Below, in pieces: positions 9,073 through 42,633 of a stretch of DNA of 43,871 nucleotides; positions within the stretch are counted from its first letter, which is position 1, and each line of letters begins with the position of its first letter. Below the pieces are notes generated by a model that did not search any database, was not told the origin of the DNA, and saw only the letters and a program-made list of their open reading frames with translations. Source of the stretch: a virus (lineage: Duplodnaviria; Heunggongvirae; Uroviricota; Caudoviricetes); the IMG/VR virus record IMGVR_UViG_2537561979_000006. One strand, 5' to 3'. The position numbers and the translations under genes are program-made.

Positions 9073-9224
9073 ATCGTATTTCTTGTGTCATTAATTGTTT
9101 GATGTTCAGATTGTTTTCCTCGCGGGCTGGCGCGCCTCAGAAAGTAAAGCTTGTTGACAGGGGTAAACGTTCGGCAATAATTTTCTGCCGCATGCGGGTG
9201 TTGCATAAAACGTGTTACGTTCCT

Positions 9225-9530: not shown

Positions 9531-9545
9531 TTGTAATTACAAGAG
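9518..9545 (+). promoter_or_regulatory. relBE operator/promoter (relO-like TTGTAAT repeats)
   Basis: CTTGTAATgacaTTTGTAATTACAAG repeat/palindrome immediately upstream of the relB start. Confidence 0.55.
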
Positions 9546-9554
9546 GTGTAAGAC

Positions 9555-10081: not shown

Positions 10082-10152
10082 ACCAAAGCATGACATCTCT
10101 GTTTCGCACCGAAGGTGACACTTCTGCTTTGCGTTGACAGGAGAAGCAGGCT

Positions 10153-10308
10153 ATGAAGCAGCAAAAGGCGATGTTAATCGCCCTGATCGTCATCTGTTTA
10201 ACCGTCATAGTGACGGCACTGGTAACGAGGAAAGACCTCTGCGAGGTACGAATCCGAACCGGCCAGACGGAGGTCGCTGTCTTCACAGCTTACGAACCTG
10301 AGGAGTAA
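10153..10308 (+). CDS. hokD: HokD/RelF type I toxin (Hok family)
   Basis: 51 codons reading MKQQKAMLIALIVICLTVIVTALVTRKDLCEVRIRTGQTEVAVFTAYEPEE. This ORF is below the size cut-off of the six-frame track and was found by direct reading. Confidence 0.85.
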   Translation: MKQQKAMLIALIVICLTVIVTALVTRKDLCEVRIRTGQTEVAVFTAYEPEE

Positions 10309-10376
10309 GAGACCCGGCGGGGGAGAAATCCCTCGCCACCTCTGATGTGGCAGGCATCCTCAACGCACCCGCACTT

Positions 10377-10405
10377 AACCCGCTTCGGCGGGTTTTTGTT
10401 TTTAT
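10377..10405 (+). terminator. Rho-independent terminator downstream of hokD
   Basis: CCCGC-ttcg-GCGGG hairpin followed by TTTTTGTTTTT. Confidence 0.6.
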
Positions 10406-10476
10406 TTTCAACGCGTTTGAAGTTCTGGACGGTGCCGGAATAGAATCAAAAATACTTAAGTAGCGCGCAGGGATAA

Positions 10477-10752
10477 GAGGGATGGTCCCTTAAGGGTAAA
10501 GGGATTGTTCTGGATGAAAAAAGAACCCGGTTTCATGGCGTACCGGTATATAAGATTTGTGGGCGTTGTAATGGAAACCGGTTTAGTCGTTTACCGACCA
10601 CGCTGGCACGACGTCATGTCCAGAAGCTGGTACCAGACCTGACCGATTATCAGTGGTATAAGGGGTATGCGGACGTCATTGGTAAACTGGTAACAAAGTG
10701 CTGGCAGGAAGAAGCATACGCGGAAGCGCAATTGAGGAAGGTGACGAGATAA
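10477..10752 (+). pseudogene. 3' remnant of a Q-type late antiterminator gene
   Basis: In-frame stretch with no start codon encoding ...ICGRCNGNRFSRLPTTLARRHVQKLVPDLTDYQWYKGY... (zinc-binding CxxC plus a Q-like C-terminus); followed ~100 bp later by a tR'-like terminator. Confidence 0.45.
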
Positions 10753-10856
10753 ATGATTTTTGCTGAAGATGGCGACATGATGTTTGCATTTTTCAAAAAA
10801 TATGGATAAAATTTTTTCAACGATGGGCTTTGTATACCCGACGTTAAGAAAAAGTA

Positions 10857-10884
10857 GAAAACCCGCTGATGAGCGGGTTTTGTG
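10857..10884 (+). terminator. tR'-like rho-independent terminator
   Basis: AAACCCGCT-gatg-AGCGGGTTTTGTG. Confidence 0.55.
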
Positions 10885-11173
10885 CTTTAAATGGGGCAAT
10901 GGTAATGTTGAATCTCATCCCGGGACTCATGTCTGTTAACTTATTATTTAGCTGGTGACTTGGTTATTTGCCTGATGTTTAAAATGTTTTCTTCCAGTAC
11001 AATGTCCCTAAACACAATGAGTCTGCTTATTATATTATTAGCAGAGCTATTACGGCCAAAGTACAGCATAAGCTTTTAAAGCCAATCAACCAGTCATCAA
11101 GACAGACGGGGTTATTCATAAAAACTCTCCATGTGTGATCCGATGGGGCCTGAAATTAAAGCTTTAATATAGC

Positions 11174-11386
11174 TCATGAAAGGTAAACATTGGCAGCTGA
11201 AGGGCCACGCAGACCATTTATCCGGCAAAATTCCACGCGTAATCCGGTGGTAATTTCTTCTGCATCGCGGAGATTGAGCGCTGAAACATGAAGCTGGACA
11301 TCGATACGACCATCGGATGGGGTGATAAGACCCTTGCCGCTTTTGCCGTCAAAGGTTTTGACAATTCCTGTCATTTTACGGGACAA
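11174..11386 (-). CDS. cspF: Cold-shock-domain protein, CspF/CspH-like
   Basis: 70-aa CSD protein ([23 protein letters not shown]...) with degenerate RNP motifs, divergent from cspB. Confidence 0.8.
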
Positions 11387-11686
11387 AAAAATTCCTTAAT
11401 ACTGATAACTTGGCGCACTATACACACGTTCCTGAAGAAAGCTATAGTTTTTTGATGGGGTTGAAGATGGCTGGATGTCTAAAATAAACATTGCTTCATA
11501 TGTTCAACTATGCGTTAATGATTGCGTCGGTTTGAAGAACAGACGATATACGAAGTAGTTTACTAAAGCAGTTCTCATTTCAGGTGTTATTCACTTATTC
11601 CTTCTTTGAGTCTCTCCAATTAAGTACGAAGTCGTTTCTGTTATGCAAACCATTTATGCCGAAAGGCTCAAGTTAAGGAATGTAGA

Positions 11687-11902
11687 ATGTCAAATAAAAT
11701 GACTGGTTTAGTAAAATGGTTTAACGCTGATAAAGGTTTCGGCTTTATTTCTCCTGTTGATGGTAGTAAAGATGTGTTTGTGCATTTTTCTGCGATTCAG
11801 AATGATAATTATCGAACCTTATTTGAAGGTCAAAAGGTTACCTTCTCTATAGAGAGTGGTGCTAAAGGTCCTGCAGCAGCAAATGTCATCATTACTGATT
11901 AA
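11687..11902 (+). CDS. cspB: Cold-shock protein CspB-like
   Basis: 71-aa [26 protein letters not shown]...VFVHFSAIQ; long AT-rich 5' leader. Confidence 0.85.
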
Positions 11903-12183
11903 AATTCATCGCTCGTCTGTATACGATAACGAAGAAGGCTGATGCCTGAGTAGAGATACGGACAGAGTAGTGAATATTGGATCTCTTTAATAAAAAGTAA
12001 GGAGGTCCAATACATGAAACAATGGCTAGCATATTTGGCAAAATCTTAATCAGGAAAAGTATGCTAACCATTGTGGTGAAGTGCAGGTTTGCTGCATGAA
12101 TAGTTTTACAGCAGAAGCTAACTGCTGGCATGGCAAAACAAAGTGCGTAAGTGGATGACTCCCACAAAAAGCACCACAATCTC

Positions 12184-12208
12184 AAACCCGCTCAGGCGGG
12201 TTTTTTAT
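12184..12208 (+). terminator. Rho-independent terminator (possibly bidirectional)
   Basis: AAACCCGC-tcag-GCGGG followed by TTTTTT. Confidence 0.55.
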
Positions 12209-12265
12209 TATCTGCTTTAAATATATTATTAAAATATAAAAAATACTTGTTACTAATAAAATCAA

Positions 12266-12436
12266 TCAGGCTACAGCTTTAAGATTTGTCTGGAATACTT
12301 TGTTGCAATGAGGGCAGATCAAAAGGGCACCTTTTTGTACTCTTGAAAAACTGTGTTCTGACTCTTGGGTGCAGTTTGGGCAGGAACATTTAACGAGATA
12401 ATTACGGCGTGATTTTGAGTTTTTACGTTCTGACAT
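12266..12436 (-). CDS. Small zinc-ribbon protein
   Basis: About 56 aa from the internal ATG that has an AGGAAA RBS; two CxxC pairs (CSCPNC...CPHC). Confidence 0.45.
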   Translation of the reverse strand: MSERKNSKSRRNYLVKCSCPNCTQESEHSFSRVQKGALLICPHCNKVFQTNLKAVA

Positions 12437-12655
12437 AGGCTTTTCCTGTATAAATGGCCGTATACAGTACACTAAATATGAAAACATTTCTCGTATTATT
12501 ATTTTATATATGACTTTCTTTCAAAATAATTACCCACATTTTTAATGTGTATGTTTTTTTAGCGCCGTTGAGAACAACGTGTGCTGTCAAAACTACCCCG
12601 TAGACTCCGATCTTTTCAAACATATTGCACCATCCGTGTACATCGGGGTGAGGAT

Positions 12656-12871
12656 ATGAAATCAATGGATAAGTTAACAACAGGTGTTGCCTATGGCACA
12701 TCGGCGGGTAATGCTGGTTTCTGGGCATTGCAGTTACTCGATAAAGTAACTCCGTCACAGTGGGCTGCAATCGGTGTGCTGGGTAGCCTGGTTTTTGGCC
12801 TGCTGACGTATCTGACAAATCTTTATTTCAAGATTAAAGAAGACAGGCGTAAGGCTGCGAGAGGAGAGTAA
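12656..12871 (+). CDS. S21-like pinholin with dual-start motif
   Basis: 71 aa [26 protein letters not shown]...; Met1-Lys-Ser-Met4 dual start; two TM segments; followed by a SAR endolysin. Confidence 0.8.
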
Positions 12872-12875
12872 TCCA

Positions 12876-13183
12876 ATGACTCAAGACTATGAACTGGTTG
12901 TGAAAGGAGTCCGTAATTTTGAGAATAAAGTTACGGTAACTGTAGCCTTACAGGACAAAGAACGCTTTGACGGTGAAATTTTTGACCTGGATGTCGCCAT
13001 GGACCGTGTTGAAGGAGCTGCGCTGGAGTTTTATGAGGCAGCAGCCAGAAGGAGCGCCCGGCAAGTCTTCCTGGAAGTAGCAGAAAAATTGTCAGAAAAA
13101 GTTGAGTCTTATCTGCAGCATCAGTACTCCTTTAAGATTGAAAATCCTGCCAATAAGCACGAGCGTCCTCATCATAAATATCT

Positions 13184-13187
<4 letters not shown>
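12876..13187 (+). CDS. YdfR-like hypothetical protein
   Basis: 103-aa ORF between holin and endolysin, the position ydfR occupies in Qin. Confidence 0.5.
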
Positions 13188-14211
<1,024 letters not shown>

Positions 14212-14573
14212 GGTAATATTAAATCGGAACATTTACATCGCGGAATGTAAAATTTAAATAAAAAGGACTCTTCCATGAGCCAAAATTCCTGAAATCTTAA
14301 GGGTAAGATAAAAGGTCTTAATCAGAATGACACGTTTTATTAATAAATAAAGCTATTCTTTCATTGCTGTGTTTTTCTTTACAAAAGTAATCCTTGCTAT
14401 GGGTGGTTAATCATGCGTTAATGGTGTTCTGGTTTGTTACAAATTTATCTGAAGCAGTCATTGTTATAATTTTATTATTTGTACCTCTTGAGATTTCCTT
14501 GTTGGTTTTTCTCTCTGATATTTTTTTTCGGACCATTCTGCCCAAGGGCTAATTTCTTCAAAAGGTAATAATT

Positions 14574-14786
14574 ATGTCTAACAAAATGACTGGTTTAGTG
14601 AAATGGTTTAACCCTGAAAAAGGTTTTGGTTTCATCACGCCGAAAGATGGCAGCAAAGATGTGTTTGTCCATTTCTCAGCAATTCAGAGCAACGATTTCA
14701 AAACATTAACTGAGAATCAGGAAGTTGAATTTGGTATTGAGAACGGACCTAAAGGTCCTGCCGCTGTTCATGTAGTGGCGCTTTGA
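14574..14786 (+). CDS. cspI: Cold-shock protein CspI-like
   Basis: 70-aa [26 protein letters not shown]...; long AT-rich leader. Confidence 0.85.
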
Positions 14787-14990
14787 GGTAGACAATATTA
14801 CAAACCATATTCACTTTAGATGCCCGTGTTGTCATGGTTCCCAGTATAGAACATCATCTTTTGATGTTTCTGACATGAATCCTTTCGGGGCAAAATGTAT
14901 CTTTTGTAAATCAATGATGATTACATTTGATAATATTTCACAATACTTAAATGCCAGCCGTCTGTCGTTGGATTTAAAAAAGTGAAAATG

Positions 14991-15015
14991 AAGGCTCCTT
15001 CGGGAGCCTTTTTAA
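14991..15015 (+). terminator. Rho-independent terminator at the Qin-like/P2-like junction
   Basis: GGCTCC-ttcg-GGAGCC followed by TTTTT. Confidence 0.6.
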
Positions 15016-15092: not shown

Positions 15093-16136
15093 CTAGGGTG
15101 TGGACACATTGTGGACACTCTGACCACCATTGGCACCCTTCAACGGGTTAAGCGAAATCGCGTCCTGCAGGTACTGAGGAGCGAAGTGCGCATAGACCAT
15201 TGTCTGCGCAATTTTCGTATGACCTAAGATCCTCTGCAGTGTGATGATGTTGCCCCCGTTAATCATAAAGTGCGTCGCGAAAGAGTGTCGTAGCGCATGT
15301 GTTGCTTGTCCGGCCGGTAAATCGGGCTTAACCTCTTTGAGGGTTCGCCTGAAGTCAGCATAACTGGCCTCAGGAAACAGAAAACCTCGTGTTTTGCCGA
15401 CTACGTAAGCCGCAACGTCATCAGAGATCGGGACCGTGCGCGGTGTGTTGGTTTTCGTCTTAACGAAAGACACCCGGTTATGAATCACATTCTCCGCCTT
15501 CAATCGCGCAGCTTCTCCCCATCTTGCTCCGGTACTCAAACACAAAACCGCAATTTTACGATTATCACCTGAGAGCGCAGCAAGTAAGGCGTCAATTTCC
15601 TCAAGAGTGAGATAGCCCGTTTCGGCTGTCTGCTCTTTCAGTTTTTTGAATCCCCTGAATGGATGCTCACCGTTATACAGTTCTGACTCAATCAGGGTTG
15701 TGAACATCCCACCTAGCGTGATCAGGTCGCGGTTGATGGTAGTTGGCTTAATACCTTCACCCCGACGTTGAGCACAATATTGCGTTATCAGGCTCTTGGT
15801 GATCTGGAAAGCGCAAGGGTTTCCGGTCATCGTTTCGAAACGCTCAATTTTCCTGAGATACGATTGACCGTGCTCCTCATGTTTACCTTTCAGCTTCCAC
15901 CATAACTCTTTCAGTTCCGACAATTGGCGTTTGTCCGTTGGTTTTGAAAGCCATTCCTTTGAGTGATGGTTATATTGAGTATGCTTTTCAAAAGCCATCG
16001 CCTCGCTTTTCTTGTCGAACTTCCGACGGATGCGTTTTCCGTTACGCCCAGCCGGTCTAATGTCCACTTCATATCGACCATCATCGAGCTTTTTAACAGA
16101 CATAAAGCCTCCCGATGATGTTACTGCGTACTTCAA
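15093..16136 (-). CDS. int: P2-type tyrosine integrase
   Basis: Close match to P2 Int (KKLDDGRYEVDIRP...GARWGEAARLKAEN...HALRHSFATHFM...LGHT...VYAHF); the true start is probably the internal Met at 16103. Confidence 0.9.
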   Translation of the reverse strand: MKYAVTSSGGFMSVKKLDDGRYEVDIRPAGRNGKRIRRKFDKKSEAMAFEKHTQYNHHSKEWLSKPTDKRQLSELKELWWKLKGKHEEHGQSYLRKIERFETMTGNPCAFQITKSLITQYCAQRRGEGIKPTTINRDLITLGGMFTTLIESELYNGEHPFRGFKKLKEQTAETGYLTLEEIDALLAALSGDNRKIAVLCLSTGARWGEAARLKAENVIHNRVSFVKTKTNTPRTVPISDDVAAYVVGKTRGFLFPEASYADFRRTLKEVKPDLPAGQATHALRHSFATHFMINGGNIITLQRILGHTKIAQTMVYAHFAPQYLQDAISLNPLKGANGGQSVHNVSTP

Positions 16137-16199
16137 TTTCCTGATTTAGATAGCAAAAACTCACTGTGCATTTATTGCACAAAAAAGCGCCGTAAATGG

Positions 16200-16499
16200 T
16201 TAGCCAGTTTTCTGGTCTGAGTGGGGTGACGTTGTTGTCTGCTGCCCAAAGTGCGCGAGAGCCGGTGCAATCTGCCCAGCTTCAGGTGCTATTTGGTCAG
16301 TCATAAACCATAAGGTGTACTTGGTGAAACGAGGATGTTGAAGGATTCTCATTATGGGCTCGACACCCGGTTTTTTATCCCCAGCTTCGTATCCACAAAA
16401 TGAACCATATGCTATTCCAGTTAACTCACTGATTTCCTTTCTATTTAATCGTTCTGACTCCCTGATGAGTTTGATTTTTTCATTGATCGGGGTTGACAT
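16200..16499 (-). CDS. C: P2 C-type immunity repressor
   Basis: 99 aa; ...FTKYTLWFMTDQIAPEAGQIAPALAHFGQQTTTSPHSDQKTG matches the P2 repressor C-terminus as I recall it. Confidence 0.85.
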   Translation of the reverse strand: MSTPINEKIKLIRESERLNRKEISELTGIAYGSFCGYEAGDKKPGVEPIMRILQHPRFTKYTLWFMTDQIAPEAGQIAPALAHFGQQTTTSPHSDQKTG

Positions 16500-16619
16500 A
16501 AATCCTCCATACGATGATTATTCCCTTATAAGGAAATAAATTCCTTTTTAGGGGTTTTGGCTATAGGCAATTAAAGCCCTTTATGAGCAATTAAATGCAC
16601 TAAAGGAGAATCGTAACAG

Positions 16620-16898
16620 ATGAACAACCAGCTTGTAAGTAGCACGGATGCGGTCCCGTATCAGGAGTTTGCCCGTCTTATTGGTAAAACACCCGCAGCC
16701 GTTAAAGGCATGATTGAGAAGGGCAAGCTGCCTGTAGTCGAGATGACTGATCCGCAGTCAACGAGTGGGCGCGCAGGGGAATATTGGGTCTACCTGCCAG
16801 CATGGAACAAAGGAATGAAGATGGCTTATGACAGCCGTCCTAAAGAGATTCGCGATGGTTGGCTGATGTGGCTCGGCTTAGGGCAACCTTCACGGTAA
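16620..16898 (+). CDS. cox: P2 Cox-like excisionase/transcription regulator
   Basis: 92-aa ORF divergent from C, in the P2 immunity arrangement. Confidence 0.75.
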   Translation: MNNQLVSSTDAVPYQEFARLIGKTPAAVKGMIEKGKLPVVEMTDPQSTSGRAGEYWVYLPAWNKGMKMAYDSRPKEIRDGWLMWLGLGQPSR

Positions 16899-16939
16899 TT
16901 AGATTCACCTATTTCATTCAAATTCAATCGAGAAATTGC

Positions 16940-17179
16940 ATGTCAAAACCAATAAAACATGGCTGCATTCGTCATATCACTAATGGTATGCGGGTGCTGA
17001 TCGACTTAAAAAGCGTGGCCGCTATCCGTGAGCGCACTGAAACAGCCGATAAAGTTGAGGTGCATCTTACGTCGGGAGAAGTTTTTGAACTTGATGTTGC
17101 CTATGAGGAGATTGCAGGTCTGTATCTAGAATTTTTAGCAAAAGAACGTGGGGTTATGGCAAACCCCACCAGTATTTGA
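16940..17179 (+). CDS. P2 orf78-like early protein
   Basis: 79-aa ORF after cox (MSKPIKHGCIRHITNGMRVL...). Confidence 0.5.
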   Translation: MSKPIKHGCIRHITNGMRVLIDLKSVAAIRERTETADKVEVHLTSGEVFELDVAYEEIAGLYLEFLAKERGVMANPTSI

Positions 17180-17181
17180 GC

Positions 17182-17370
17182 TTAGTTGATATCTAAAAAG
17201 CTTTTATGCGTGACAGGCATTTTAGATTGAACTGCCTCTCTCAACTGGATTGACAGTTTGTTGATTTCCTCAGCCTTCTCACGATTAGAGATCGCATCAG
17301 AGGAAGAATTAACCAATGCAATGGCTGATTTTAGAGTGGCAATTAATTCATCATTTTGTTGATTAGTCAT
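17182..17370 (-). CDS. Small AT-rich coiled-coil ORF antisense to the early operon
   Basis: About 62 aa from the ATG at 17370 with a GAGG RBS; AT-rich relative to flanking P2 genes. Confidence 0.35.
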   Translation of the reverse strand: MTNQQNDELIATLKSAIALVNSSSDAISNREKAEEINKLSIQLREAVQSKMPVTHKSFLDIN

Positions 17371-17628
17371 GAAATACCTCATGTGATTGGCTTGTTTTTG
17401 GCGATTCGATCCTATCACAAGGCCATGTGTCGGGCATGGTTAAAACCCGACTCCCTAAGGAGTATTTATGAAAGAGCCTCGCTGTATTGCACAGTTGCTT
17501 CGAAGAGAAAGCCCTAATCCGATCAACTTCACCATCACTCACGGTCGCGGCCGCAAGGGCATAATCATCCGAACCCGTAAGCCGGGCGTTATCGAGAAGG
17601 TTCGCCGTCTGGTCAAAAAGAGAGGACT

Positions 17629-18442: not shown

Positions 18443-18706
18443 ATGAGCATACACATCGAGATTAATAACCAATACGTCATCACCAGTGACCGCTATCAAT
18501 TCATTTTGCAGGAAAAAAAGACCGCAACATCCGGGAAGAATGAAGGTAAGGAATGGTTGGACGTTGTGGGTTACTACCCAACTATCCCTAAGCTTATCTC
18601 AGGCTTGGTTTTGCATGATCTTTTAACCAGCGATCTTACCGGCTTCGCAGCTTTGGAAGCTCGGATTGAACGCATGGGTAAGCAATGTCTGGACGCTTTT
18701 AAATAA
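18443..18706 (+). CDS. P2 orf81-like protein
   Basis: 87-aa ORF immediately preceding gene A. Confidence 0.5.
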   Translation: MSIHIEINNQYVITSDRYQFILQEKKTATSGKNEGKEWLDVVGYYPTIPKLISGLVLHDLLTSDLTGFAALEARIERMGKQCLDAFK

Positions 18707-18707
18707 T

Positions 18708-20702
18708 ATGTCCAACGAACCTCGGGGGCGTGTTGCCCCCTCGCCACCACCACCATTTTTGAAGGGCACCAGTGATTCATTCGTTGGTGCTTATCCCTGG
18801 AATAATGTCTACAAAGAGGCTATAGGCCGCGACAGACCCCTTACACGTGGCGAATACCGTCAGGTGCAAGGTGTTTTAGGTAAAGTTAATCGCCTGCCAT
18901 ATGTCTTAAAAACATTGTTTAACTCGCGGTATGACTTCATCCGTCGTACAAAAAGTCCACTTCATGGTTTCTATTTCCTCAAGAACACCGTTGAGCAAAG
19001 GGTGGGGCCGCGTCTTGAGCGGGTTAATCAGTTAAATGGAATGAACGAGACTGCATCGCTTCTCTTTCTGAGCGAGCGCGAAAGCTATTCACGATTAGCG
19101 GGTATGAGTGACAAAGCGCTCAAAAAATTTGCTGCTCGTATTGCTTCGCAGCTCTATGTTGCTTATGAGGAACTTAGCGACGCATGGGCAGATGCTCATG
19201 GCGGTAAAGAAACCCTTTTCACCGATGAAGCGCAGGCGCACTTATATGGTCACGTTGCCGGTGCAGCTCGTGCATTCAACATCACCCCAATGTTCTGGAA
19301 GAAATACCGCAAAGGGCAAATCATGATCCGCCAGGCATTTTCCGCTATCGCTCGTCTGATTAACGATGAATGGTGGATTAACCAGTTTAAGGCGCAGCGT
19401 ATGCGCTGGCACGAGGCTTTGCTGATTGCCGCCGGTGAGGTGAATAAAGACCGCTCCCCATACGCCAGCAAAACGGCGATCCGTGATGTACATTCTCGCC
19501 GTAAAGCTAATTTCGAATACTTGAAGTCGTGTGACTTGGAAAACAAAGTCACTGGTGAGCGCATCGATCTCATCAGCAAAGTCATGGGAAGTATTTCAAA
19601 CCCCGAAATCCGTCGTATGGAACTGATGAATACTATCGCAGGGATTGAACGCTATGCGGCCGGTCAGGGTGACGTCGGGATGTTTATCACTATCACCACG
19701 CCGTCGAAGTATCACCCGACACGTCAGGTTGGAAAGGGCGACAAAAAGACGGTGCAGCTTAACCACGGATGGAATGAAACCGCCTTTACGCCCAAGGATG
19801 GACAGCGGTATTTGTGCCGTATCTGGAGCCTGATGCGTACAGCATTTAAAGATAACGGTCTGCAGGTCTACGGGATGCGTGTTGTTGAGCCGCATCATGA
19901 CGGGACTCCGCACTGGCATATGATGCTTTTTTGTAAACCAGAGCAACGCAAACAGGTCACCGAAATCATGCGCCGTTATGCCTTAAAAGAAGATGGCGAT
20001 GAAAAAGGCGCTGCAGCACAGCGCTTTGAAGCTAAGCACCTCAATCAAGGTGGCGCAGCCGGTTACATTGCAAAATACATCGCGAAGAATATCGATGGTT
20101 ACGCGCTCGATGGTCAGGTCGATCACGACACCGGCAAACCTCTAACCGATACCGCAGCAGCTGTAACCGCATGGGCGTCAACATGGCGTATCCCGCAATT
20201 CAAATCAATTGGCCTGCCGACGATGGGCGCGTACCGCGAACTGCGCAAACTGCCTCGCGGGGTAAGTATTGCTGATGAATTTGATGAGCGTGTCGAGGCG
20301 GCCAGAGCTGCAGCTGATGAAGGTGAATTTGACCGGTATATCGCAGCGCAGGGTGGGGCGAATGTTCCACGCGATAGCCAGACCGTCCGTGTGGCTCGTA
20401 ACGTGACTGATGAGGTCAACGCCTACGAAGAGGATATAGAGAGAGTTGTGGGCATCTACGCCCCGCACTTGGGCTCTGAGTTGGTACGTGTTACCCGGAC
20501 AGCCGAATGGCGCATTGTTCCAAAACTTTTGGCCGTTGAGCCTTTGACTTTAAAAAGCGGCATTGCCGCGCCTCGGAGTCCTGTCAATAACTGTGGGTTG
20601 GTTAAATCTTTCTCTGGCTCTAGTCAACTTTCCATATGTGCGGTTGAGAACGCTCAAGTGAAAGTGAGGCAGTTAATTCATCCCTTAAGAAGCTATGTAT
20701 AG
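18708..20702 (+). CDS. A: P2 gpA-like rolling-circle replication initiator (HUH endonuclease)
   Basis: HUH motif (PHWHMMLF) and Tyr motif (YIAKYIAKNIDGY); about 664 aa against ~761 for P2 A; the C-terminal ~35 residues look unrelated and AT-rich. Confidence 0.85.
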   Translation: MSNEPRGRVAPSPPPPFLKGTSDSFVGAYPWNNVYKEAIGRDRPLTRGEYRQVQGVLGKVNRLPYVLKTLFNSRYDFIRRTKSPLHGFYFLKNTVEQRVGPRLERVNQLNGMNETASLLFLSERESYSRLAGMSDKALKKFAARIASQLYVAYEELSDAWADAHGGKETLFTDEAQAHLYGHVAGAARAFNITPMFWKKYRKGQIMIRQAFSAIARLINDEWWINQFKAQRMRWHEALLIAAGEVNKDRSPYASKTAIRDVHSRRKANFEYLKSCDLENKVTGERIDLISKVMGSISNPEIRRMELMNTIAGIERYAAGQGDVGMFITITTPSKYHPTRQVGKGDKKTVQLNHGWNETAFTPKDGQRYLCRIWSLMRTAFKDNGLQVYGMRVVEPHHDGTPHWHMMLFCKPEQRKQVTEIMRRYALKEDGDEKGAAAQRFEAKHLNQGGAAGYIAKYIAKNIDGYALDGQVDHDTGKPLTDTAAAVTAWASTWRIPQFKSIGLPTMGAYRELRKLPRGVSIADEFDERVEAARAAADEGEFDRYIAAQGGANVPRDSQTVRVARNVTDEVNAYEEDIERVVGIYAPHLGSELVRVTRTAEWRIVPKLLAVEPLTLKSGIAAPRSPVNNCGLVKSFSGSSQLSICAVENAQVKVRQLIHPLRSYV

Positions 20703-20833: not shown

Positions 20834-21763
20834 ATGAGTGTTGCAAGACATCATCATTTTTTATCTCAATGTTATTTGAAAGGCTTTACAAGCAACGGGG
20901 GGAAAAAATCAAAATTAACTGTAATAGATTTAAAGGAGCGCAAAACTTTTGAAAGTAATACACGTAATGTCGGGGGTGTGAGAGATTTTAACCGATTAGA
21001 ATTGGATGGAGTTGATCCAAACTATCTCGAAAGTTCTCTTGCAGAGTTCGAAGGCAGTGTCGCCACTCATCTAAGGAAACTTGAGGAGGGCAAAGATTTT
21101 TCAGGCGAAACAAAAGATATCATTTTAGAGTTTATTTCCTTACTTGCGATACGCACGCCTGCTCAGCGAGAGCATTTATCATCGCCATTGAAACAAATAG
21201 CAAAGTTCATAATGAAATCTTCTGTTAGTTCGGCTGAGCGTTGGGAAGATTGCAAATTAGCTTATGAGAAAGAAAAGGGAGAGTCTTTGCCATATGATCT
21301 CGCTTACGAGAAAATTAAAGATTATGTTGATGGTGATAATTTCGAAATCAATGTAATCAGAGAGTTCATGATAGGCATGGAAATGCAATGTGTACCTGTA
21401 ATTGCTGAGCTGTTGCACCAACGCGACTGGTCACTTATGACCATATCTGATGGGCAAGGAACATTTATAACTTCAGATAACCCAGTTTGCTTAATGTGGA
21501 CTAATCCTGAATTATCACAAGGTCCTTATTCCCCGGGGTTTGGTCTAAAAGACACTTTAGTTTTGTTTCCAGTATCAAAAAATCTTCTTTTGGCAGGCGA
21601 GTTTGATGGTCATGAGGGGGTATTTAGTTGTAATGACGAGCAGGTTGCCATCTTTAACACTTCAGTCATCCGGCATACCGCAGAAAGAATTTTTTCAGCC
21701 AATGGAAATTTCCATTTTTTAGACGCAGCTAAAAGAATGAAGCAAGGTAAAAGCCTAGTTTGA
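20834..21763 (+). CDS. DUF4238-like protein; candidate anti-phage defence cargo
   Basis: 309 aa, AT-rich; N-terminal HHHFLSQCYLKGF and central FITSDNPV motifs resemble the DUF4238 signatures as I remember them; sits in the P2 A-to-cos (tin/old) cargo slot. Confidence 0.7.
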   Translation: MSVARHHHFLSQCYLKGFTSNGGKKSKLTVIDLKERKTFESNTRNVGGVRDFNRLELDGVDPNYLESSLAEFEGSVATHLRKLEEGKDFSGETKDIILEFISLLAIRTPAQREHLSSPLKQIAKFIMKSSVSSAERWEDCKLAYEKEKGESLPYDLAYEKIKDYVDGDNFEINVIREFMIGMEMQCVPVIAELLHQRDWSLMTISDGQGTFITSDNPVCLMWTNPELSQGPYSPGFGLKDTLVLFPVSKNLLLAGEFDGHEGVFSCNDEQVAIFNTSVIRHTAERIFSANGNFHFLDAAKRMKQGKSLV

Positions 21764-21978
21764 TAGTGGTTTTTTATGGGTTTCCGGGAAGAATTCTACT
21801 CTTAACCAGTGTTCGTAAAATGATTACCTGTTATAAGAGTTTTTCATTTTTAGGTGCGCCTAATAATGCATTTAATTGCATGTGGTTTTATAGGGGACGA
21901 TTCGCCTGCTCTATCCAGCGCTGGTGTGATTTCAATGCTAACGTGCATGTGCATCAAAATAGCCCCATTAAGCGGGCA

Positions 21979-21997
21979 GGCGAGGCGGGGATAGCAC
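21979..21997. other. P2-type cos site (19-nt cohesive-end sequence)
   Basis: GGCGAGGCGGGGATAGCAC, one mismatch from the P2 cohesive end GGCGAGGCGGGGAAAGCAC as I recall it; located just beyond the 3' end of Q as in P2. Confidence 0.6.
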
Positions 21998-22162
21998 TGC
22001 GCGCCGGGTGTGGTGACAGGATTTATTTTACGCGTCTGTGCGCGTCGTGGGGGCGCGCTGTGATGTGAAGTCGGTCAAGGTGATGTCGGGCGTTTGCGTC
22101 GCGTGCGCGGCGTCTGGCTTGCTCTGAGAATGTGCCGCCCGTAGGCGGCATTTTTGGCAGGT

Positions 22163-23188
22163 TTAGTCGGTCTCTATGTTGTAATCCTTAAAGCGGATCA
22201 CCTCCATCCCGAGCCAGTCGTTTATCTCTTTAAACCGCTCCTGCAGCGGCGTCAGCTCGTTACGCACAAACACCCGCGCCACCTTCTCGATATCGCCCAT
22301 CGAGCCGATATTTTCAGGCTTGCCGCCCATGAGCTGGAACGGCACGCGGTGCGCATCAAGCAGGTCGGCGGCGCTCACCTTCTTGATGTTAAAAAAATCA
22401 TCCTTCGTGGCGACTTCACTCAACGGCACGATCTTAATGCCGTCCGGTTTCCCGTTCGGGGCGTAGAAAAACAGGTTTTTAAAATTCCCGAGTCCTTTCG
22501 AGTCGCGCATCGCGGAGCGCAGCGCCTCGACGTCGGTGCTGCTTTGCGCCGCGTCGGTCACGTACATGATGTAACCCGCGTGCGCGCCGTTCTGGTAATA
22601 CTTGCGACGAAACAGCGTGGCGGATTCATTCAGCCAGGCGGAATTGAGCGCGCTCAGGTATTCCGGCATCCCGTAGAGCTCCTGATTGATATCAGGCTCA
22701 AGCAGATGAAACACCGAATCGGGGGCGAACTGGTGCGGGTGCGTATAGTCCGACACGTACCAGTAAACGCCAGCTTCGACACCACGGCGGGTGTATTTGG
22801 CCGGGGAGGTTTCCAGTTTAAAAAGCTGGCCGGTCACGCTCATGCGCTTCTCGAGATAGCCGTTGGCGAAGACCAGATAATCGAGCACAAGGCGGCTGAA
22901 GTCCTGACGAGACAGCAACGGGTGCGGGATAAAGGTGCTGGTCAGAATGTTGCGCTTAACGTAAATCGGGGAGCTGTGGTGCACGGCGGCGCGCAGGCTT
23001 TTTGCCAGTCCCGAGAAATTGACCGGCGGCTCGTACCATTTGCCGTTATTGATGCACTCGACATAGTCGAGGATGTCGCGGCGATCCAAAACGGGTGACG
23101 GCTCACCAAAGGTGAACGCCTCCATTTTCTGCGACGCGCTGGCGGCCATGTTGGCCTGTTTTGGCTGTTTCTTTTGGCGTTTTTTCAT
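22163..23188 (-). CDS. Q: P2 gpQ-like portal protein
   Basis: 341 aa, length and order as in P2 (Q then P, divergent from O). Confidence 0.85.
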   Translation of the reverse strand: MKKRQKKQPKQANMAASASQKMEAFTFGEPSPVLDRRDILDYVECINNGKWYEPPVNFSGLAKSLRAAVHHSSPIYVKRNILTSTFIPHPLLSRQDFSRLVLDYLVFANGYLEKRMSVTGQLFKLETSPAKYTRRGVEAGVYWYVSDYTHPHQFAPDSVFHLLEPDINQELYGMPEYLSALNSAWLNESATLFRRKYYQNGAHAGYIMYVTDAAQSSTDVEALRSAMRDSKGLGNFKNLFFYAPNGKPDGIKIVPLSEVATKDDFFNIKKVSAADLLDAHRVPFQLMGGKPENIGSMGDIEKVARVFVRNELTPLQERFKEINDWLGMEVIRFKDYNIETD

Positions 23189-29930: not shown

Positions 29931-30360
29931 AGCCGTTCCGCAGCTTGAAACGAACCCCGAAATGATGCGCATCTTTGCCGATGAGGGGAATATCGATGCA
30001 CGTCTCGCGGCCTCGCTGTCGCACGAGAAAATTTATACGCTGAATGTGATCGTGTGTGACTTTGTGGGCGACCCTGATCTGATTTTCGTGCCGGTGGCCG
30101 CATGGCTCAGGGAAAACCAGCCGGATATCTGCACGCTCGATGACGGCCGCATAAAGGGCTACCGTTTCCAGATGGATTTGAACGACGGGGACAGCATCGA
30201 TATCAGTATCAGCCTGCAGCTCACTGAGCGAACCCTCATCAAAGAGGAAAACGGCGCGCTGCACGTAAGCTATGCCCCTGAGCCGCCGCTGCCGGAGCCC
30301 GCCACCCGGCCAAAAGAGCTCTATATCAACGGCGAACTGGTGAGCAAATGGGATGAGTGA
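29893..30360 (+). CDS. R: P2 gpR-like tail completion protein
   Basis: 155 aa from MKKARSLREAL..., same length as P2 R. Confidence 0.8.
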   Translation: MKKARSLREALIKAVPQLETNPEMMRIFADEGNIDARLAASLSHEKIYTLNVIVCDFVGDPDLIFVPVAAWLRENQPDICTLDDGRIKGYRFQMDLNDGDSIDISISLQLTERTLIKEENGALHVSYAPEPPLPEPATRPKELYINGELVSKWDE

Positions 30361-30814
30361 ATTTAAGCCCTTTGACGACAGGCTCGATGGTCTGATTGCT
30401 GCCCTGTCACCGGCAGCGCGCCGGAAGCTGGCCGGTGAGATAGCAAAAGAGCTGCGCAAGGCGCAACAACAACGCATCAAACAGCAAAAAGCCCCGGATG
30501 GCTCGCCGTATCAGGCGCGAAAGCGTCAGCCTCTCAGGGCTAAGAGCGGACGGATTAAACGGGCGATGTTCCAGAAGCTCCGCACCAGCCCCTACATGAG
30601 AGCCACTGGCAGTGAAAATAGTGCTGTTGTGGAGTTTACCGGTAAAGTGCAGCGCATCGCGCGTGTCCACCAGTATGGTCTTGAGGATCGGCCAAACTCC
30701 TACGCCAGTAACGTGCAATATGCAAAACGCCAGCTACTCGGTTTGAGTCGGTACGATAAAGATTTTATTGAAGATATTATCTATGGTTATTTAGATTGCA
30801 ATATGTATTTGTAA
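30353..30814 (+). CDS. S: P2 gpS-like tail completion protein
   Basis: 153 aa; the last ~20 codons are AT-rich, suggesting the moron boundary lies within the 3' end. Confidence 0.8.
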   Translation: MSEFKPFDDRLDGLIAALSPAARRKLAGEIAKELRKAQQQRIKQQKAPDGSPYQARKRQPLRAKSGRIKRAMFQKLRTSPYMRATGSENSAVVEFTGKVQRIARVHQYGLEDRPNSYASNVQYAKRQLLGLSRYDKDFIEDIIYGYLDCNMYL

Positions 30815-31098: not shown

Positions 31099-32913
31099 TT
31101 GATGAATGGAGTTAGAATGAAGATAATAAATGCTTTATTTTCGACAGTAACGGTTGACCTAAAAAGAAAAACTTTTTATTTGGATTTGTTATTTCTGTTT
31201 GTTTGTGTATGGACGCTAATAGCCTCAGGTTCGGAGGCTCAATATTATCTCTTTAAGTTTATTAATAGTGATAGTTCAACACTCTACGGTAGTGTATTTG
31301 AAGATGCGATTGCGCGTATACCAACCTTTAATGAGTATGTTAAAGGTGCTTATTCATTTTCCGGCAGTTATGGTTTTTTAGCTGCTCTGATTATAGTTGT
31401 TGTGGCTTTATTTTATCAGACTACTGTTCAAATATTTATAGTTAGTATTATTAGTTCGGCGTTTGGGCTAACAGTAACGGATTTCTTGATGTTTGCTTTT
31501 AATGGAACTCTAACGACACAAGCAATGATAGAGTGTGTTATGGCAAACGCTTTGGGGTCACCTATAATTGCAAGCTTTATTGTTTTGCTTTTTTATATAA
31601 AAAAGTTTTTATTTAATGTGTCAAGCATTAATCTGGCTCTCAGGTATATATCAAATTATGTTGTTTACTCAATAATTTGTTTTTTGATTTTGTTTGTTAC
31701 TTACTATATCGTGTGTTTCTTTTATAGACCTACAGCAGTAAATTTTTCAGTCTCTACGTCTGAAGAGTTTTCTGGTGATTACTTCCTAAGTGATAAGAAT
31801 GATGTCTTAAAAGAAGCTAAGGGTTCTTTGTTAAAAGATCGATTTTCGCTATTAAACTCACCAGTAAAGTTAAATGGAACAATAAATGTTTTTGGTGAGA
31901 TCGATTCTATACTCTCAAAATTTAATGCGAGCGATGTCTATACTGTAAGAGTCTTGCCTTTATTAAACTGTATTGATGGGGGGGCAATTAATGCAGCGCT
32001 TGCTGACTATTTAAGTTATGAAGGCGTAAGGGGGTTTTCTATTAAATCTTCAGAATCAATGACTTTGATTACCTTTGGTGATAAGGCGGGATATGTTAAA
32101 AGTAATGATGAGCTCGTTAATATGTTTACTGTCAAAAAAAATAATAAATCGGGGTTTGATATTACTAAAGTTAATGATGGAGTGTTTAGTTATTATCCTT
32201 CTGAATCGAGTGGGAGCATGTATGTCGCTACTGGAGTGACTGATTTTAAAGGTGACCAGAGTAAGAAGGAAGTGAAGTACACGTTGGATGTAAATGGTGT
32301 GAAAAAAATATTCCATGTGGATGTGAGTAGGCTGCGCGCGAAAAATGCAGAAAGAAAATTACAGTGTCAAATTGCTTCATTCACAAGTTCATCCAACGAT
32401 GTATACATTGATGCAGGAGAGGCTGTATATGTTGGCGTACTTATCAAACCTATTCTTAATCAAAAGAATGAATATTTTTCACTTTTTAGCGAACGTGATA
32501 ATAAATTCGACGTCAAAGGGAAATTGCTATATGTACAGGCAAAAAATGTTTCGCGAGAAAACGTAGTAGGGCATTATGTTACAAAGGGATATTTGAACGG
32601 CTTTATTCTTCATTCCTTTGATAAGTTATCAATAGATGGGAAGAATGTTGAATCAAATAAAATGGATAATCTAATGGTGATGGGGGAGGGGATTTATGGG
32701 CATGTATCTGCGGACAATAATTTAGTTATTAGTGGTAAAGCCGATCTCTTCTATAAAAATAGATTGCGGCAAAACAAAACCTTATGGGAAACTTCGAGTG
32801 ATAATACATTAATCTTGGGTGGTATTGGAGCTTTAATGGTTTCCTTGTTGTTGTGGTGTGTAAATAGAATATATTCCTCTTTGAAGAAAAATGAAGTTAT
32901 TAATAGTTTTTAA
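31099..32913 (+). CDS. Polytopic membrane protein of unknown family encoded by an AT-rich moron
   Basis: 598-604 aa (probable start at the ATG at 31117, which has a GGAG RBS); about five N-terminal TM helices, a ~350-aa hydrophilic domain and a C-terminal TM anchor; strongly AT-rich; terminator-like hairpin 13 nt downstream. Confidence 0.75.
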   Translation: MMNGVRMKIINALFSTVTVDLKRKTFYLDLLFLFVCVWTLIASGSEAQYYLFKFINSDSSTLYGSVFEDAIARIPTFNEYVKGAYSFSGSYGFLAALIIVVVALFYQTTVQIFIVSIISSAFGLTVTDFLMFAFNGTLTTQAMIECVMANALGSPIIASFIVLLFYIKKFLFNVSSINLALRYISNYVVYSIICFLILFVTYYIVCFFYRPTAVNFSVSTSEEFSGDYFLSDKNDVLKEAKGSLLKDRFSLLNSPVKLNGTINVFGEIDSILSKFNASDVYTVRVLPLLNCIDGGAINAALADYLSYEGVRGFSIKSSESMTLITFGDKAGYVKSNDELVNMFTVKKNNKSGFDITKVNDGVFSYYPSESSGSMYVATGVTDFKGDQSKKEVKYTLDVNGVKKIFHVDVSRLRAKNAERKLQCQIASFTSSSNDVYIDAGEAVYVGVLIKPILNQKNEYFSLFSERDNKFDVKGKLLYVQAKNVSRENVVGHYVTKGYLNGFILHSFDKLSIDGKNVESNKMDNLMVMGEGIYGHVSADNNLVISGKADLFYKNRLRQNKTLWETSSDNTLILGGIGALMVSLLLWCVNRIYSSLKKNEVINSF

Positions 32914-34937: not shown

Positions 34938-35538
34938 CCGGCTGTTACCCGTTGGCTCGTCGCCGCTGGAGGTTGCCGCCGCTGCCGCGCTCTCTGAGAT
35001 TCAGCGCGTGCCGGTAACGCTCCGCACTCTGTGGAACTGGCGCACCTGCCCGGTAAACCTGCTGCCGTATCTGGCGTGGGCGCTGTCGGTCGACCGGTGG
35101 GATGAGAAGTGGCCGGAGGCGACAAAGCGCAGCGTCTGCGCATCTTCGTTTTTCGTCCATCAGCACAAAGGCACCATCAGCGCATTGCGTCGGGTGGTTG
35201 AGCCGCTCGGCTTTCTGATTGAGGTGCGCGAGTGGTGGCAGCTCAACGAGGCGCCAGGCACTTTCCGCCTCGTTGTCGGCGTGCTCGACAGCGGCATCAC
35301 TGATGAAATGTATCAGGAGCTCGAGCGCCTGATTGATGACGCCAAACCGGCAAGCCGCCACCTCACCGGGCTGGCTATCAGCCTGAGTGCCACCGGCGAG
35401 CTGTATGTCGGCGCGGGATGCTACGACGGCGACGCGCTCACCGTTTACCCCTACACCCCCGAGGAAATTGTCGTCGGCGGTGAATATTACCCGGCCTCGG
35501 CCATCCATTTGATTGATAACCTGAGAGTGAACGCATGA
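34930..35538 (+). CDS. I: P2 gpI-like baseplate protein
   Basis: 202 aa, in order after J. Confidence 0.8.
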   Translation: MSDRLLPVGSSPLEVAAAAALSEIQRVPVTLRTLWNWRTCPVNLLPYLAWALSVDRWDEKWPEATKRSVCASSFFVHQHKGTISALRRVVEPLGFLIEVREWWQLNEAPGTFRLVVGVLDSGITDEMYQELERLIDDAKPASRHLTGLAISLSATGELYVGAGCYDGDALTVYPYTPEEIVVGGEYYPASAIHLIDNLRVNA

Positions 35539-36521
35539 CCGCAAAATATTTAGCCATTCTGACCAATCAGGGCGCGGCGCGGCTGGCGAACGCGGCGGCA
35601 CTCGGTACCAGACTAAACCTGACGCAGATGGCCGTCGGTGATGCGAATGGTACGCTGCCTACACCTGACCCGGCGCAGACGAAGCTCATTAACCAGAAGC
35701 GCATCGCGCCGCTGAACCTGCTGAACGTTGATCCGGCCAATACCAGCCAGATTATCGCGGAACAAATTATTCCCGAGAATGAGGGCGGTTTCTGGATCCG
35801 AGAGATTGGTCTCTACGATGATGAGGGGATTCTGATTGCCGTGGCAAACTGCCCGGAGACCTACAAACCGCAACTGCAGGAGGGAAGCGGCCGCACGCAG
35901 ACCATTCGCATGATTCTGATTGTGTCGAGCACGTCGGCCGTTACCCTGAAAATCGACCCGTCGGTGGTGCTGGCAACGCGGCAGTATGTCGAGGATAAGG
36001 TTATCGAGGTGAAAGCCTATGCCGATAATCTGCTGGCCGCACACCTCGCCGCTGCAGACCCGCACACGCAATACCTCAAAACGGCGGATATTGATAAATA
36101 CATTCCGGTCGGTTTTCCGCTGCCGTGGCCGCAGGCAACACCGCCGGAGGGCTGGCTTAAATGCAACGGCGCGGTTTTTGACAAGGTGAAATATCCAAAG
36201 CTGGCTGTCGCTTATCCATCCGGTAAATTGCCTGACTTGCGCGGTGAGTTTTTGCGAGGGTGGGATGACGGGCGCGGGATAGACAATGGACGAGCGCTAT
36301 TATCCGCTCAGGTCGGCTCTGGAGTTGGGATGTTCCTCGGTGGTCATTCAGATGGGACCGCATATATCCCATTGAGTGATTTCGACAGCGTTGTCGACAA
36401 CAGCCCGTCATGGTCACATGTAAATACCGCAGGGCTGATTTCTTCAATTGGTGGTCAACGGTCATCATTCGGCGCTCGCCCACGCAACATTGCATTTAAC
36501 TACATCGTGAGGGCGGCATAA
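35535..36521 (+). CDS. H: Tail fibre protein (gpH position), short chimeric form
   Basis: 328 aa against ~669 for P2 H; the C-terminus ends ...[14 protein letters not shown], the conserved ending shared with lambdoid side tail fibres. Confidence 0.75.
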   Translation: MTAKYLAILTNQGAARLANAAALGTRLNLTQMAVGDANGTLPTPDPAQTKLINQKRIAPLNLLNVDPANTSQIIAEQIIPENEGGFWIREIGLYDDEGILIAVANCPETYKPQLQEGSGRTQTIRMILIVSSTSAVTLKIDPSVVLATRQYVEDKVIEVKAYADNLLAAHLAAADPHTQYLKTADIDKYIPVGFPLPWPQATPPEGWLKCNGAVFDKVKYPKLAVAYPSGKLPDLRGEFLRGWDDGRGIDNGRALLSAQVGSGVGMFLGGHSDGTAYIPLSDFDSVVDNSPSWSHVNTAGLISSIGGQRSSFGARPRNIAFNYIVRAA

Positions 36522-37117
36522 TGGCAAAAGCGACACTTAACAAACAGGGCATTACCACAAAAGCCGGTGATATGACGGTTTATAACTATGACGGTGAAAC
36601 CCGCGAATATCTGACGTCCTCTGTCGAGTTTCTGGCGCTGGGCGTGGGGATTCCTGCTAATTCCTGCACCGATGCACCGGTCGAAAAAAAGGAGGGTTTC
36701 GCGGTGTGCCGAGCGGCCAGTCTTGACGGGTGGGAGTATGTCGCAGACCATCGCGGTGAGACGGTTTATGACACGGAAACCGGTCAGCCGGTCAACATTA
36801 CCGCACCCGGTGACTATGCCCCCGGTGTAACTACGTTTGCACCGTCTACCCCCTGTGACCGCTGGAACGGTAGCGAATGGGTCACGGATAAGGACGCGCA
36901 GAAAAACGGTCAGGTTAAGGAGGCAGAACAGAAAAAATCCGCGCTGCTGAATAAGGCACAAAGCACTATCAGCCTGTGGCAGACTGAGCTGCAGCTCGGC
37001 ATCATCAGCGACGATGACAAGGCCAGCCTGATTGCGTGGATGAAATACATTCAGTCGCTGAACGTGATCGACACCTCTGCTGCGCCGTATATTGAGTGGC
37101 CGGAAAGACCTGAATAA
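36521..37117 (+). CDS. G: Tail fibre assembly chaperone (gpG/Tfa family)
   Basis: 198 aa; conserved Tfa C-terminus (DDDKASLIAWMKYIQSLNVIDTSAAPYIEWPERPE). Confidence 0.8.
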   Translation: MAKATLNKQGITTKAGDMTVYNYDGETREYLTSSVEFLALGVGIPANSCTDAPVEKKEGFAVCRAASLDGWEYVADHRGETVYDTETGQPVNITAPGDYAPGVTTFAPSTPCDRWNGSEWVTDKDAQKNGQVKEAEQKKSALLNKAQSTISLWQTELQLGIISDDDKASLIAWMKYIQSLNVIDTSAAPYIEWPERPE

Positions 37118-37122
37118 ACGAA

Positions 37123-37146
37123 GCCCTCCACCCGGAGGGCTTTTTT
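37123..37146 (+). terminator. Rho-independent terminator after G
   Basis: GCCCTCC-accc-GGAGGGC followed by TTTTTT. Confidence 0.7.
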
Positions 37147-37240
37147 GTATGTTGTGTTATCCCTCCACCAACGGCATTGCATCGCGCCTGCGCGACACAC
37201 AACAGAAAATAGTCGCACCCCTAACCACGGAGTTAAACAG

Positions 37241-38434
37241 ATGGGCGACTATCATCACGGCGTCGAGGTCATCGAGATTAATGATGGCACGCGCACCATT
37301 TCCACCGTCTCGACGGCCATCATCGGCATGGTCTGCACGGCCAGCGATGCTGACGCAAAGACATTCCCCCTGAACGAGCCGGTGCTGATTACCAGCGTGC
37401 AAACGGCGATCGGTAAGGCCGGTAAAAAAGGCACGCTGGCAAAATCCCTGCAGGCCATTGCCGACCAGTGCAAGCCGGTCATTGTGGTGGTGCGCGTTCC
37501 CGAAGGTGTCGACGACCCGTCAGACCCGGAAGCGGCGCAGAAAGAAACCATTTCCAACATCATCGGCACGACCGACGAAAACGGCAAATACACCGGGCTG
37601 AAAGCGCTGTTAACAGCGAAAACCGTCACCGGTGTTAAGCCGCGCATTCTCGGCGTGCCGGGCGTGGATACGCAGGAAGTGGCGACCGCTCTTGCGTCGA
37701 CCTGCCAGAGCCTGCGCGCGTTCGGCTATGTGAGCGCGTGGGGCTGCAAGACCATTTCCGACGCCATTAAATACCGTGAGAACTTCAGCCAGCGCGAGCT
37801 CATGGTCATTCACCCTGATTTTCTGGCATGGGACACCACGGCGAACGAAACCGATATTGCATGGGCGACCGCCCGCGCGCTCGGCCTGCGCGCCAGAATC
37901 GACCAGGATACCGGCTGGCACAAAACGCTGTCCAACGTCGGCGTGAATGGCGTCACCGGCGTCAGCGCCTCGGTCTCATGGGATTTGCAGGAGCAGGCCA
38001 CCGACGCCAACCTGCTGAATCAGGCCGGGGTGACAACGCTCATCCGCAACGATGGCTTTAAATTCTGGGGTAACCGAACCTGCTCGGACGATCCATTATT
38101 CGTGTTTGAAAACTACACCCGCACGGCGCAGGTGCTGGCCGACACGATGGCGGAAGCGCACGCGTGGGCGATGGATAAGCCCGTTTCTGCAACGCTCATC
38201 CGCGACATCGTCGCCGGTATCAATGCCAAATTCCGCGAGCTGAAAAACAACGGCTATATCGTTGACGGCTCCTGCTGGTACGACCCGGAGTCAAACAGCG
38301 TGGAAACCCTCAAAGCCGGGAAACTGTATATCGATTACGACTACACCCCCGTCCCGCCGCTGGAAAACCTGACCCTGCGCCAGCGCATCACCGATACCTA
38401 TCTGGCAGACCTGTCAGACTCGGTCAACAGCTAA
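37241..38434 (+). CDS. FI: P2 gpFI-like tail sheath protein
   Basis: About 397 aa from MGDYHHGVEVIEINDGTRTIS...; 396 in P2. Confidence 0.9.
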   Translation: MGDYHHGVEVIEINDGTRTISTVSTAIIGMVCTASDADAKTFPLNEPVLITSVQTAIGKAGKKGTLAKSLQAIADQCKPVIVVVRVPEGVDDPSDPEAAQKETISNIIGTTDENGKYTGLKALLTAKTVTGVKPRILGVPGVDTQEVATALASTCQSLRAFGYVSAWGCKTISDAIKYRENFSQRELMVIHPDFLAWDTTANETDIAWATARALGLRARIDQDTGWHKTLSNVGVNGVTGVSASVSWDLQEQATDANLLNQAGVTTLIRNDGFKFWGNRTCSDDPLFVFENYTRTAQVLADTMAEAHAWAMDKPVSATLIRDIVAGINAKFRELKNNGYIVDGSCWYDPESNSVETLKAGKLYIDYDYTPVPPLENLTLRQRITDTYLADLSDSVNS

Positions 38435-42058: not shown

Positions 42059-42633
42059 TGGCATTCAGAATGAGTGAACAACCACGGACCATAAAAATTT
42101 ATAATCTGCTGGCCGGAACTAATGAATTTATTGGTGAAGGTGATGCATATATTCCGCCTCATACAGGTCTGCCAGCAAACAGTACCGATATTGCACCGCC
42201 AGATATTCCGGCTGGCTTCGTGGCTGTTTTCAACAGTGATGAGTCATCGTGGCATCTCGTTGAAGATCATCGGGGTAAAACGGTTTATGACGTGGCTTCC
42301 GGCGACGCGTTATTTATTTCTGAACTCGGTCCGTTACCGGAAAATGTTACCTGGTTATCGCCGGAAGGGGAGTTTCAGAAGTGGAACGGCACAGCCTGGG
42401 TGAAGGATACGGAAGCAGAAAAACTGTTCCGGATCCGGGAGGCGGAAGAAACAAAAAACAACCTGATGCAGGTAGCCAGTGAGCATATTGCGCCGCTTCA
42501 GGATGCTGCAGATCTGGAAATTGCAACGGAGGAAGAAATCTCGTTGCTGGAAGCATGGAAAAAGTATCGGGTATTGCTGAACCGTGTTGATACGTCAACT
42601 GCACAGGATATTGAATGGCCAGCACTGCCGTAG
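42058..42633 (+). CDS. tfa: Tail fibre assembly protein (Tfa)
   Basis: 191 aa; conserved Tfa C-terminus ([33 protein letters not shown]); its start overlaps the stf stop (TAATG). Confidence 0.8.

Follow-up and report, generated by a model that had tools for sequence, protein, structure and literature searches.

A terminator followed by a predicted late promoter, and no cargo gene, between the tail-fibre assembly and sheath genes of a P2-like element inside prophage Qin

The window, that is the whole stretch of 43,871 nucleotides that was analysed, carries a P2-like element at 15013-41934, inside the E. coli prophage Qin. Its late genes follow the order S, V, W, J, I, H, G, FI, FII, E, T, the synteny of the Peduoviridae (P2-like phages) according to PHROG and Pfam matches, and gene calls on a contig of 99.93% identity (L173) also support this order. 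The layout includes all three moron slots known from such phages (A/Q, S/V and G/FI). The last of them separates the final gene of the V operon from the first gene of the F operon (Table 1). The former is a G-like gene ending in TAA (37115-37117), which codes for a tail-fibre assembly protein (PHROG 105, E = 1.5e-85; Pfam Caudo_TAP, E = 8.9e-37) and shares ~80% nucleotide identity with the tail-fibre assembly gene of Erwinia phage EtG. The latter, FI, codes for the tail sheath (PHROG 23, E = 6e-150) from an ATG at 37241, with the N-terminus MGDYHHGV where the P2 counterpart has MSDYHHGV, and the protein is 98% identical to that of a prophage of Enterobacter vonholyi. From stop to start codon the spacer measures 123 bp (37118-37240), and 94 bp of it (37147-37240) lie between the T-run of a terminator and the FI start codon.

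Table 1. Features of the G-FI interval, its flanking genes and the cargo of the other two slots (window coordinates)
Feature	Coordinates	Strand	Remarks
DUF4238 protein and 102-aa ORF, A/cos (TO) cargo	20834-22068	+	DUF4238 protein of 309 aa
S/V (orf30) cargo	31117-32913	+	598-aa predicted membrane protein; GC ~0.32 (0.29-0.36)
Tail-fibre gene H	35535-36521	+	328 aa; Phage_tail_fib N-terminal domain and Collar domain
G-like tail-fibre assembly (chaperone) gene	36521-37117	+	198 aa; last gene of V operon
Rho-independent terminator of V operon	37120-37146	+	stem 37120-37143; T-run 37141-37146
Junction GTA, actual position of the cargo slot	37147-37149		between T-run and activator site
Predicted Ogr/B/delta-type activator site	37150-37172	+	TGTTGTG-N11-CCAAC, contains TGT-N12-CCA
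Heptamer TGTTGTG	37150-37156		within activator site
Small ORF, 23 codons, GTG start	37157-37228	-	no Shine-Dalgarno
Small ORF, 11 codons, TTG start	37177-37212	+	no Shine-Dalgarno
Inverted heptamer CACAACA	37198-37204		abuts the -10 hexamer
Putative -10 hexamer GAAAAT	37205-37210	+	aligns with the hexamer that precedes the mapped start in P2
Predicted transcription start	37217-37219	+	approximate
Shine-Dalgarno GGAG of FI	37229-37232	+	8 nt before start codon
Tail-sheath gene FI	37241-38434	+	397 aa; first gene of F operon

Upstream of the interval, gene H is about half the length of its P2 homolog (669 aa), a short form that also occurs in Erwinia phage EtG. Positions 36035-37081, covering the C-terminal part of H and most of G, constitute a mosaic tail-fibre cassette: the closest prophage, in Enterobacter vonholyi, is 93% to 97% identical on both sides of this segment and has no match within it, where the window resembles EtG (~80%). 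The right recombination boundary falls ~35 bp before the G stop codon, and the terminator-promoter spacer thus acts as a conserved flank.

The element is incomplete at its right end. Positions 1-15013 of the window are 100% identical to E. coli Qin and end in ynfR, just past cspI and ymcF, and from 41933 onwards the sequence is 99.95% identical to the K-12 stfQ fragment, tfaQ, pinQ and ydfK. Homology to intact relatives stops at 41934, only 8 bp past the T stop codon, so that U, D, the ogr-type activator gene and attR are missing; the Qin genes from ynfN to the front part of stfQ are missing as well. In the 35-kb contig mentioned above (Logan ERR9716431), U and D follow T, and this intact copy of the element has an identical spacer. 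As a consequence of the truncation after T, no Ogr-type protein (C-x2-C-x22-C-x4-C) is encoded anywhere in the window. The truncated form, represented by a single sequence, may be a genuine deletion derivative or else a chimera of the assembly; a search of complete E. coli genomes did not find the exact element, the best match there having ~81% identity over ~75% of the element. The Rfam matches in the Qin flanks (6695-6866, 11526-11918, 14428-14813 and 42401-42599) are known Qin features, namely the sok antitoxin RNA, two cspA-type thermoregulator leaders (upstream of cspB and cspI) and IS009 inside tfaQ.

The terminator begins three nucleotides past the G stop codon. It was detected by a terminator scan and has a core GCCCTCC/GGAGGGC closed by the loop ACCC, with a 10-pair stem including six G-C pairs, a 4-nt loop and six T. 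Its fold reaches -19.5 kcal/mol (z = -5.5), and none of 200 shuffled sequences folds as well. Transcription of the V-W-J-I-H-G operon would stop at this hairpin and T-run, and a late promoter of the FI-FII-E-T operon, called PF in P2 and pJ in phage 186, would start three bases further on.

Several features point to such a promoter. P2 has four Ogr-dependent late promoters with the consensus TGT-N12-ACA (PMC3931495), and a late promoter is recognised here by a partial dyad of this type centred ~55 bp upstream of the start. The candidate site in the window has half-sites TGT (37153-37155) and CCA (37168-37170) separated by 12 nt; its right arm is CCA and not ACA, and PF of P2 deviates likewise. 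The spacing equals that of the pF site of P2 (17555-17583) and of the B-protein site of phage 186 (14091-14110), the three sites reading GTTGTG-TTATCCCTCCA-CCAAC in the window, GTTGTG-CTGTCGATTAG-CCAAC in P2 and GTTGTG-CCAGACATCAT-CCAGC in phage 186, each with an 11-nt spacer. The centre of the dyad precedes the alignment-predicted start by ~56 bp (~57 bp in P2). Further downstream, the block CAAC-GAAAATA is common to the window and P2, in which the mapped start lies 7-9 nt past the hexamer, and the block AACCACGGAGTTAAAC around the FI Shine-Dalgarno is identical to P2; altogether 66 of the 94 bases of the interval are identical between the two. The sheath gene, which heads the FI-FII-E-T operon, follows the site directly. 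A scan of 36400-37500 for sigma-70 consensus sequences revealed neither a full promoter nor a -35 element, as fits an activator-dependent promoter, and this result is therefore not evidence against one. The same left half-site is also found at the two other positions where late promoters are expected, at 25026 between the divergent genes P and O, and at 32967, 68 bp before the start of V (69 bp in P2), the spacing of this PV-like site being one base below that of P2. The 7-mer TGTTGTK shows no enrichment across the window (18 found, 13.5 expected), so the argument for the promoter rests on position and alignment and not on counts.

Comparison with related loci supports a fixed arrangement. A scan with the FI protein of the window, over one genome per species, gave 79 loci, mostly from Enterobacter, Serratia, Rahnella, Buttiauxella and Yersinia, and 80 P2-clade loci from IMG/VR were added to this species-level set. 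In the aligned 110 bp upstream of FI from the 79 loci, GTTGT is the best conserved non-coding block (at least 90%). Its distance to the FI ATG is 88-95 bp in 128 of 157 related loci and 90 bp in the window. This distance is held with or without cargo, which indicates that the promoter is a fixed module attached to FI and that cargo is placed upstream of it. A GC-rich hairpin of -8 kcal/mol or better immediately precedes the GTTGT site in 30 of the 31 short-spacer loci (28 of 29 relatives, and the window), with phage 186 as the exception (-6.8 kcal/mol). The stem sequences vary between genera, so that the layout rather than the sequence is conserved. Enterobacterial P2-like sheath genes (72% to 100% identity) were also found on contigs with unexpected labels, namely a Sporobacter termitidis MAG, Pseudomonas lundensis, Pseudomonas defluvii, Kocuria, Bacillus and Asticcacaulis (L009, L049, L063, L080, L081 and L082), and these are probably contamination or binning errors.

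On this evidence we consider it very likely (a probability of about 0.9) that 37147-37240 is a late promoter of the P2 PF / phage 186 pJ type, and that the gap between G and FI is a minimal two-operon junction with no moron. The predicted promoter fills the interval completely, and the actual insertion point would thus be the 3-bp junction. RNA polymerase would be recruited to a promoter with the -10 hexamer GAAAAT and no -35 by an Ogr/B/delta-type zinc-finger protein bound to the partial dyad. The resulting transcript would have a 5' leader of ~22 nt that contains the GGAG of FI. With the element cut short behind T and no ogr-like gene in the window, this promoter is probably silent on its own and would need an activator provided in trans.

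A preliminary description of this DNA had proposed that the Z/fun cargo slot between G and FI is empty, with ~95 bp from the G terminator to the FI start and the accessory genes concentrated at the A/cos and S/V slots. All of this agrees with our results. A slot counts as occupied if one or more non-structural genes stand between the terminator of the V operon and the activator site of PF; P2 and EtG have cargo genes at this place, whereas here the T-run and the activator site are just 3 bp apart. Both other slots do contain cargo. In the A/cos slot, the gene of the DUF4238 protein (20834-21763; Pfam E = 1.4e-39; PADLOC DUF4238-Pers E = 2.5e-217) overlaps by four bases with the 102-aa ORF (21760-22068), which has no family match. 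This cargo has a GC content of 0.385-0.42; its left neighbour is A (18666-20702, Phage_GPA) and its right neighbour is the portal gene Q, on the minus strand (22163-23188). Protection against T7 is conferred by a DUF4238 protein of the P2 hotspot (PMC9122126). The large protein in the S/V slot has no match in PHROG, Pfam, PADLOC or NCBIfam, and only 14 clusters of this protein were found. Its gene is flanked by S (30353-30814) and V (start near 33034), and is followed by its own terminator and then by the PV-like site. The S/V slot is also in use in P2-like prophages of Citrobacter freundii.

The three moron regions of P2-like phages, TO, orf30 and Z/fun, have been described previously (PMC3091744; PMC6823313), and fun is known as a second defence-enriched locus (PMC9519451). 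Rousset et al. 2022 treat the old/tin hotspot only and do not discuss the fun slot. We compared the G-FI lengths across P2-like prophages, as the preliminary description had suggested, by measuring the spacer from the last plus-strand chaperone gene to FI with profile anchoring. An alternative measure based on the nearest plus-strand ORF of at least 150 aa was dropped because it misses short chaperones, which inflated ~15 loci to ~540 bp. Short spacers proved usual in the lineage of the element: among 48 species-level FI relatives, 29 have 120-146 bp, 15 have 227-391 bp with no ORF of at least 90 aa, and four exceed 600 bp (44 of 48 below 400 bp). Several relatives have no recognisable chaperone gene, and there a fibre gene is followed directly by FI after 110-280 bp. 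The spacer of phage 186 is 128 bp, and 24 complete E. coli genomes align contiguously across G, the spacer and FI. The 75 IMG/VR loci with an FI at least 85% identical to that of P2 give a different picture, with more than 1 kb in 61 and at most 150 bp in seven, in a sample that is redundant and in which some of the "occupied" spacers look like invertible tail-fibre segments and not cargo. An empty slot is therefore the norm in the lineage of the element and in phage 186, and P2 belongs to a mostly occupied clade.

The P2 fun(Z) gene itself has no homologue in any of the 80 P2-clade loci. Many of their "occupied" spacers harbor one or two minus-strand ORFs of ~145-200 aa together with a plus-strand ORF of ~197-199 aa that ends ~60 bp before FI (for example L088, L100, L102, L113, L114, L118, L123, L126 and L127, among others). 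This layout suggests an invertible tail-fibre segment with its invertase rather than defence cargo.

The long spacers of the P2 clade bear on how the compact slot arose. It could represent a secondary, clean loss of cargo rather than an ancestral state, which would be compatible with the promoter reading. More than 1 kb in 61 of 75 P2-clade loci would fit such a loss, as would the 1038-bp spacer with two minus-strand genes in EtG, the closest phage for the H/G cassette, and gene turnover at this slot has been described (PMC3091744; PMC6823313; PMC9519451). However, no remnant of cargo is present in the 3 bp between T-run and activator site, and the compact layout in 29 of 48 relatives of many genera, as well as in phage 186, is more simply explained as a retained basal state, so that we regard a secondary loss as rather unlikely. 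Another possibility concerns the promoter itself. The activator site begins with TGTTGTG, and its exact inverse, CACAACA, abuts the -10 hexamer 41 bp further on. The exact CACAACA is found in 41 of 157 related loci, with the shorter ACAAC or GCAAC in 33 more, and P2 has GCAAC at this position. CACAACA might be a functional second half-site where an activator or a competitor tunes or gates the F operon and through which the promoter answers a foreign activator, but we give this little credence. If it were true, the promoter of a copy devoid of ogr could answer the activator of another P2-like prophage or of a P4-type satellite.

The interval could also conceal a gene. The preliminary description named a small conserved ORF as the finding that would contradict an empty slot, and we found none. 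Only two ORFs lie wholly within the spacer, and although they might be taken as hints of a small protein, or of a small RNA, missed by the ORF list, both lack a ribosome-binding site. Any longer ORF that reaches into the spacer either overlaps G or FI out of frame or is the frame of FI itself, extended back to a TTG in the T-run. A search of the whole window against Rfam at the gathering threshold gave nothing in the spacer, and a search of the spacer at E values up to 1 gave only sub-threshold terminator-like matches (E = 0.3-0.5). Moreover, the conservation across relatives is located in the promoter blocks, and elsewhere the indels are not multiples of three. A hidden small protein or RNA is thus highly improbable. 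The open FI frame would equally allow the sheath gene to start at the in-frame TTG at 37145, the interval then coding for an N-terminal extension of the sheath, and this we find harder still to believe. This TTG falls within the terminator T-run, whereas the ATG at 37241 is preceded by GGAG at a distance of 8 nt and yields a protein start like that annotated in P2. Furthermore, the PHROG sheath profile match begins at residue 1 of the short form of FI, and alignment of the region upstream of FI with P2, 186 and EtG requires gaps that break the frame.

The late-promoter reading leaves the locus with a clean annotation, in which the Z/fun slot is closed and narrowed down to a 3-bp junction. Slot occupancy can be measured reliably from two anchors, the terminator and the GTTGT site ~90 bp before the sheath gene, and these may serve as a baseline for mining phage defence hotspots. 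Measured by clade, the slot is mostly empty near this element and phage 186 and mostly occupied near P2.

The locus can be compared with three known phages. In P2, the equivalent place does carry the Z/fun gene, as had been stated beforehand: fun(Z) codes for 529 aa on the minus strand (15675-17261 in the P2 record), G ends at 15274 and FI starts at 17652, and the 2377 bp between them hold fun(Z) and long non-coding flanks. The P2 record marks 17555-17583 as "activator binding site; activation of pF promoter" and has transcription of the F operon begin at 17626-17628, 24 nt ahead of FI. From the activator site to the FI ATG the promoter module aligns between the two, over 97 bp in P2 and 94 bp here. 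EtG, a member of Eganvirus, shares ~80% nucleotide identity with the window over the C-terminal part of H, G and FI, and its PF-like promoter also adjoins FI. However, the G terminator and the activator site of EtG are separated by two minus-strand genes, one for a DUF1493 protein and one for a hypothetical protein.

Phage 186 is the closest match in layout, with a terminator, an activator site, a promoter and the sheath gene J in the same succession, and no gene between, in a spacer of 128 bp against 123 bp here. In the 186 record, the terminator t45, at the place equivalent to that of the window, the B-protein site and the promoter pJ with its start point all lie inside this spacer. The left half-site GTTGTG is shared, with the same spacing to CCAGC in 186 and to CCAAC in the window. 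The two differ in sequence, with ~65 of 94 bases identical and a -10 of GACAAT in 186 against GAAAAT, the P2 form, here; the immunity region of the element is also P2-like, with a 99-aa repressor. The junction of terminator and late promoter between G and FI is thus the arrangement already known from phage 186, and represents ordinary biology of this group of phages.
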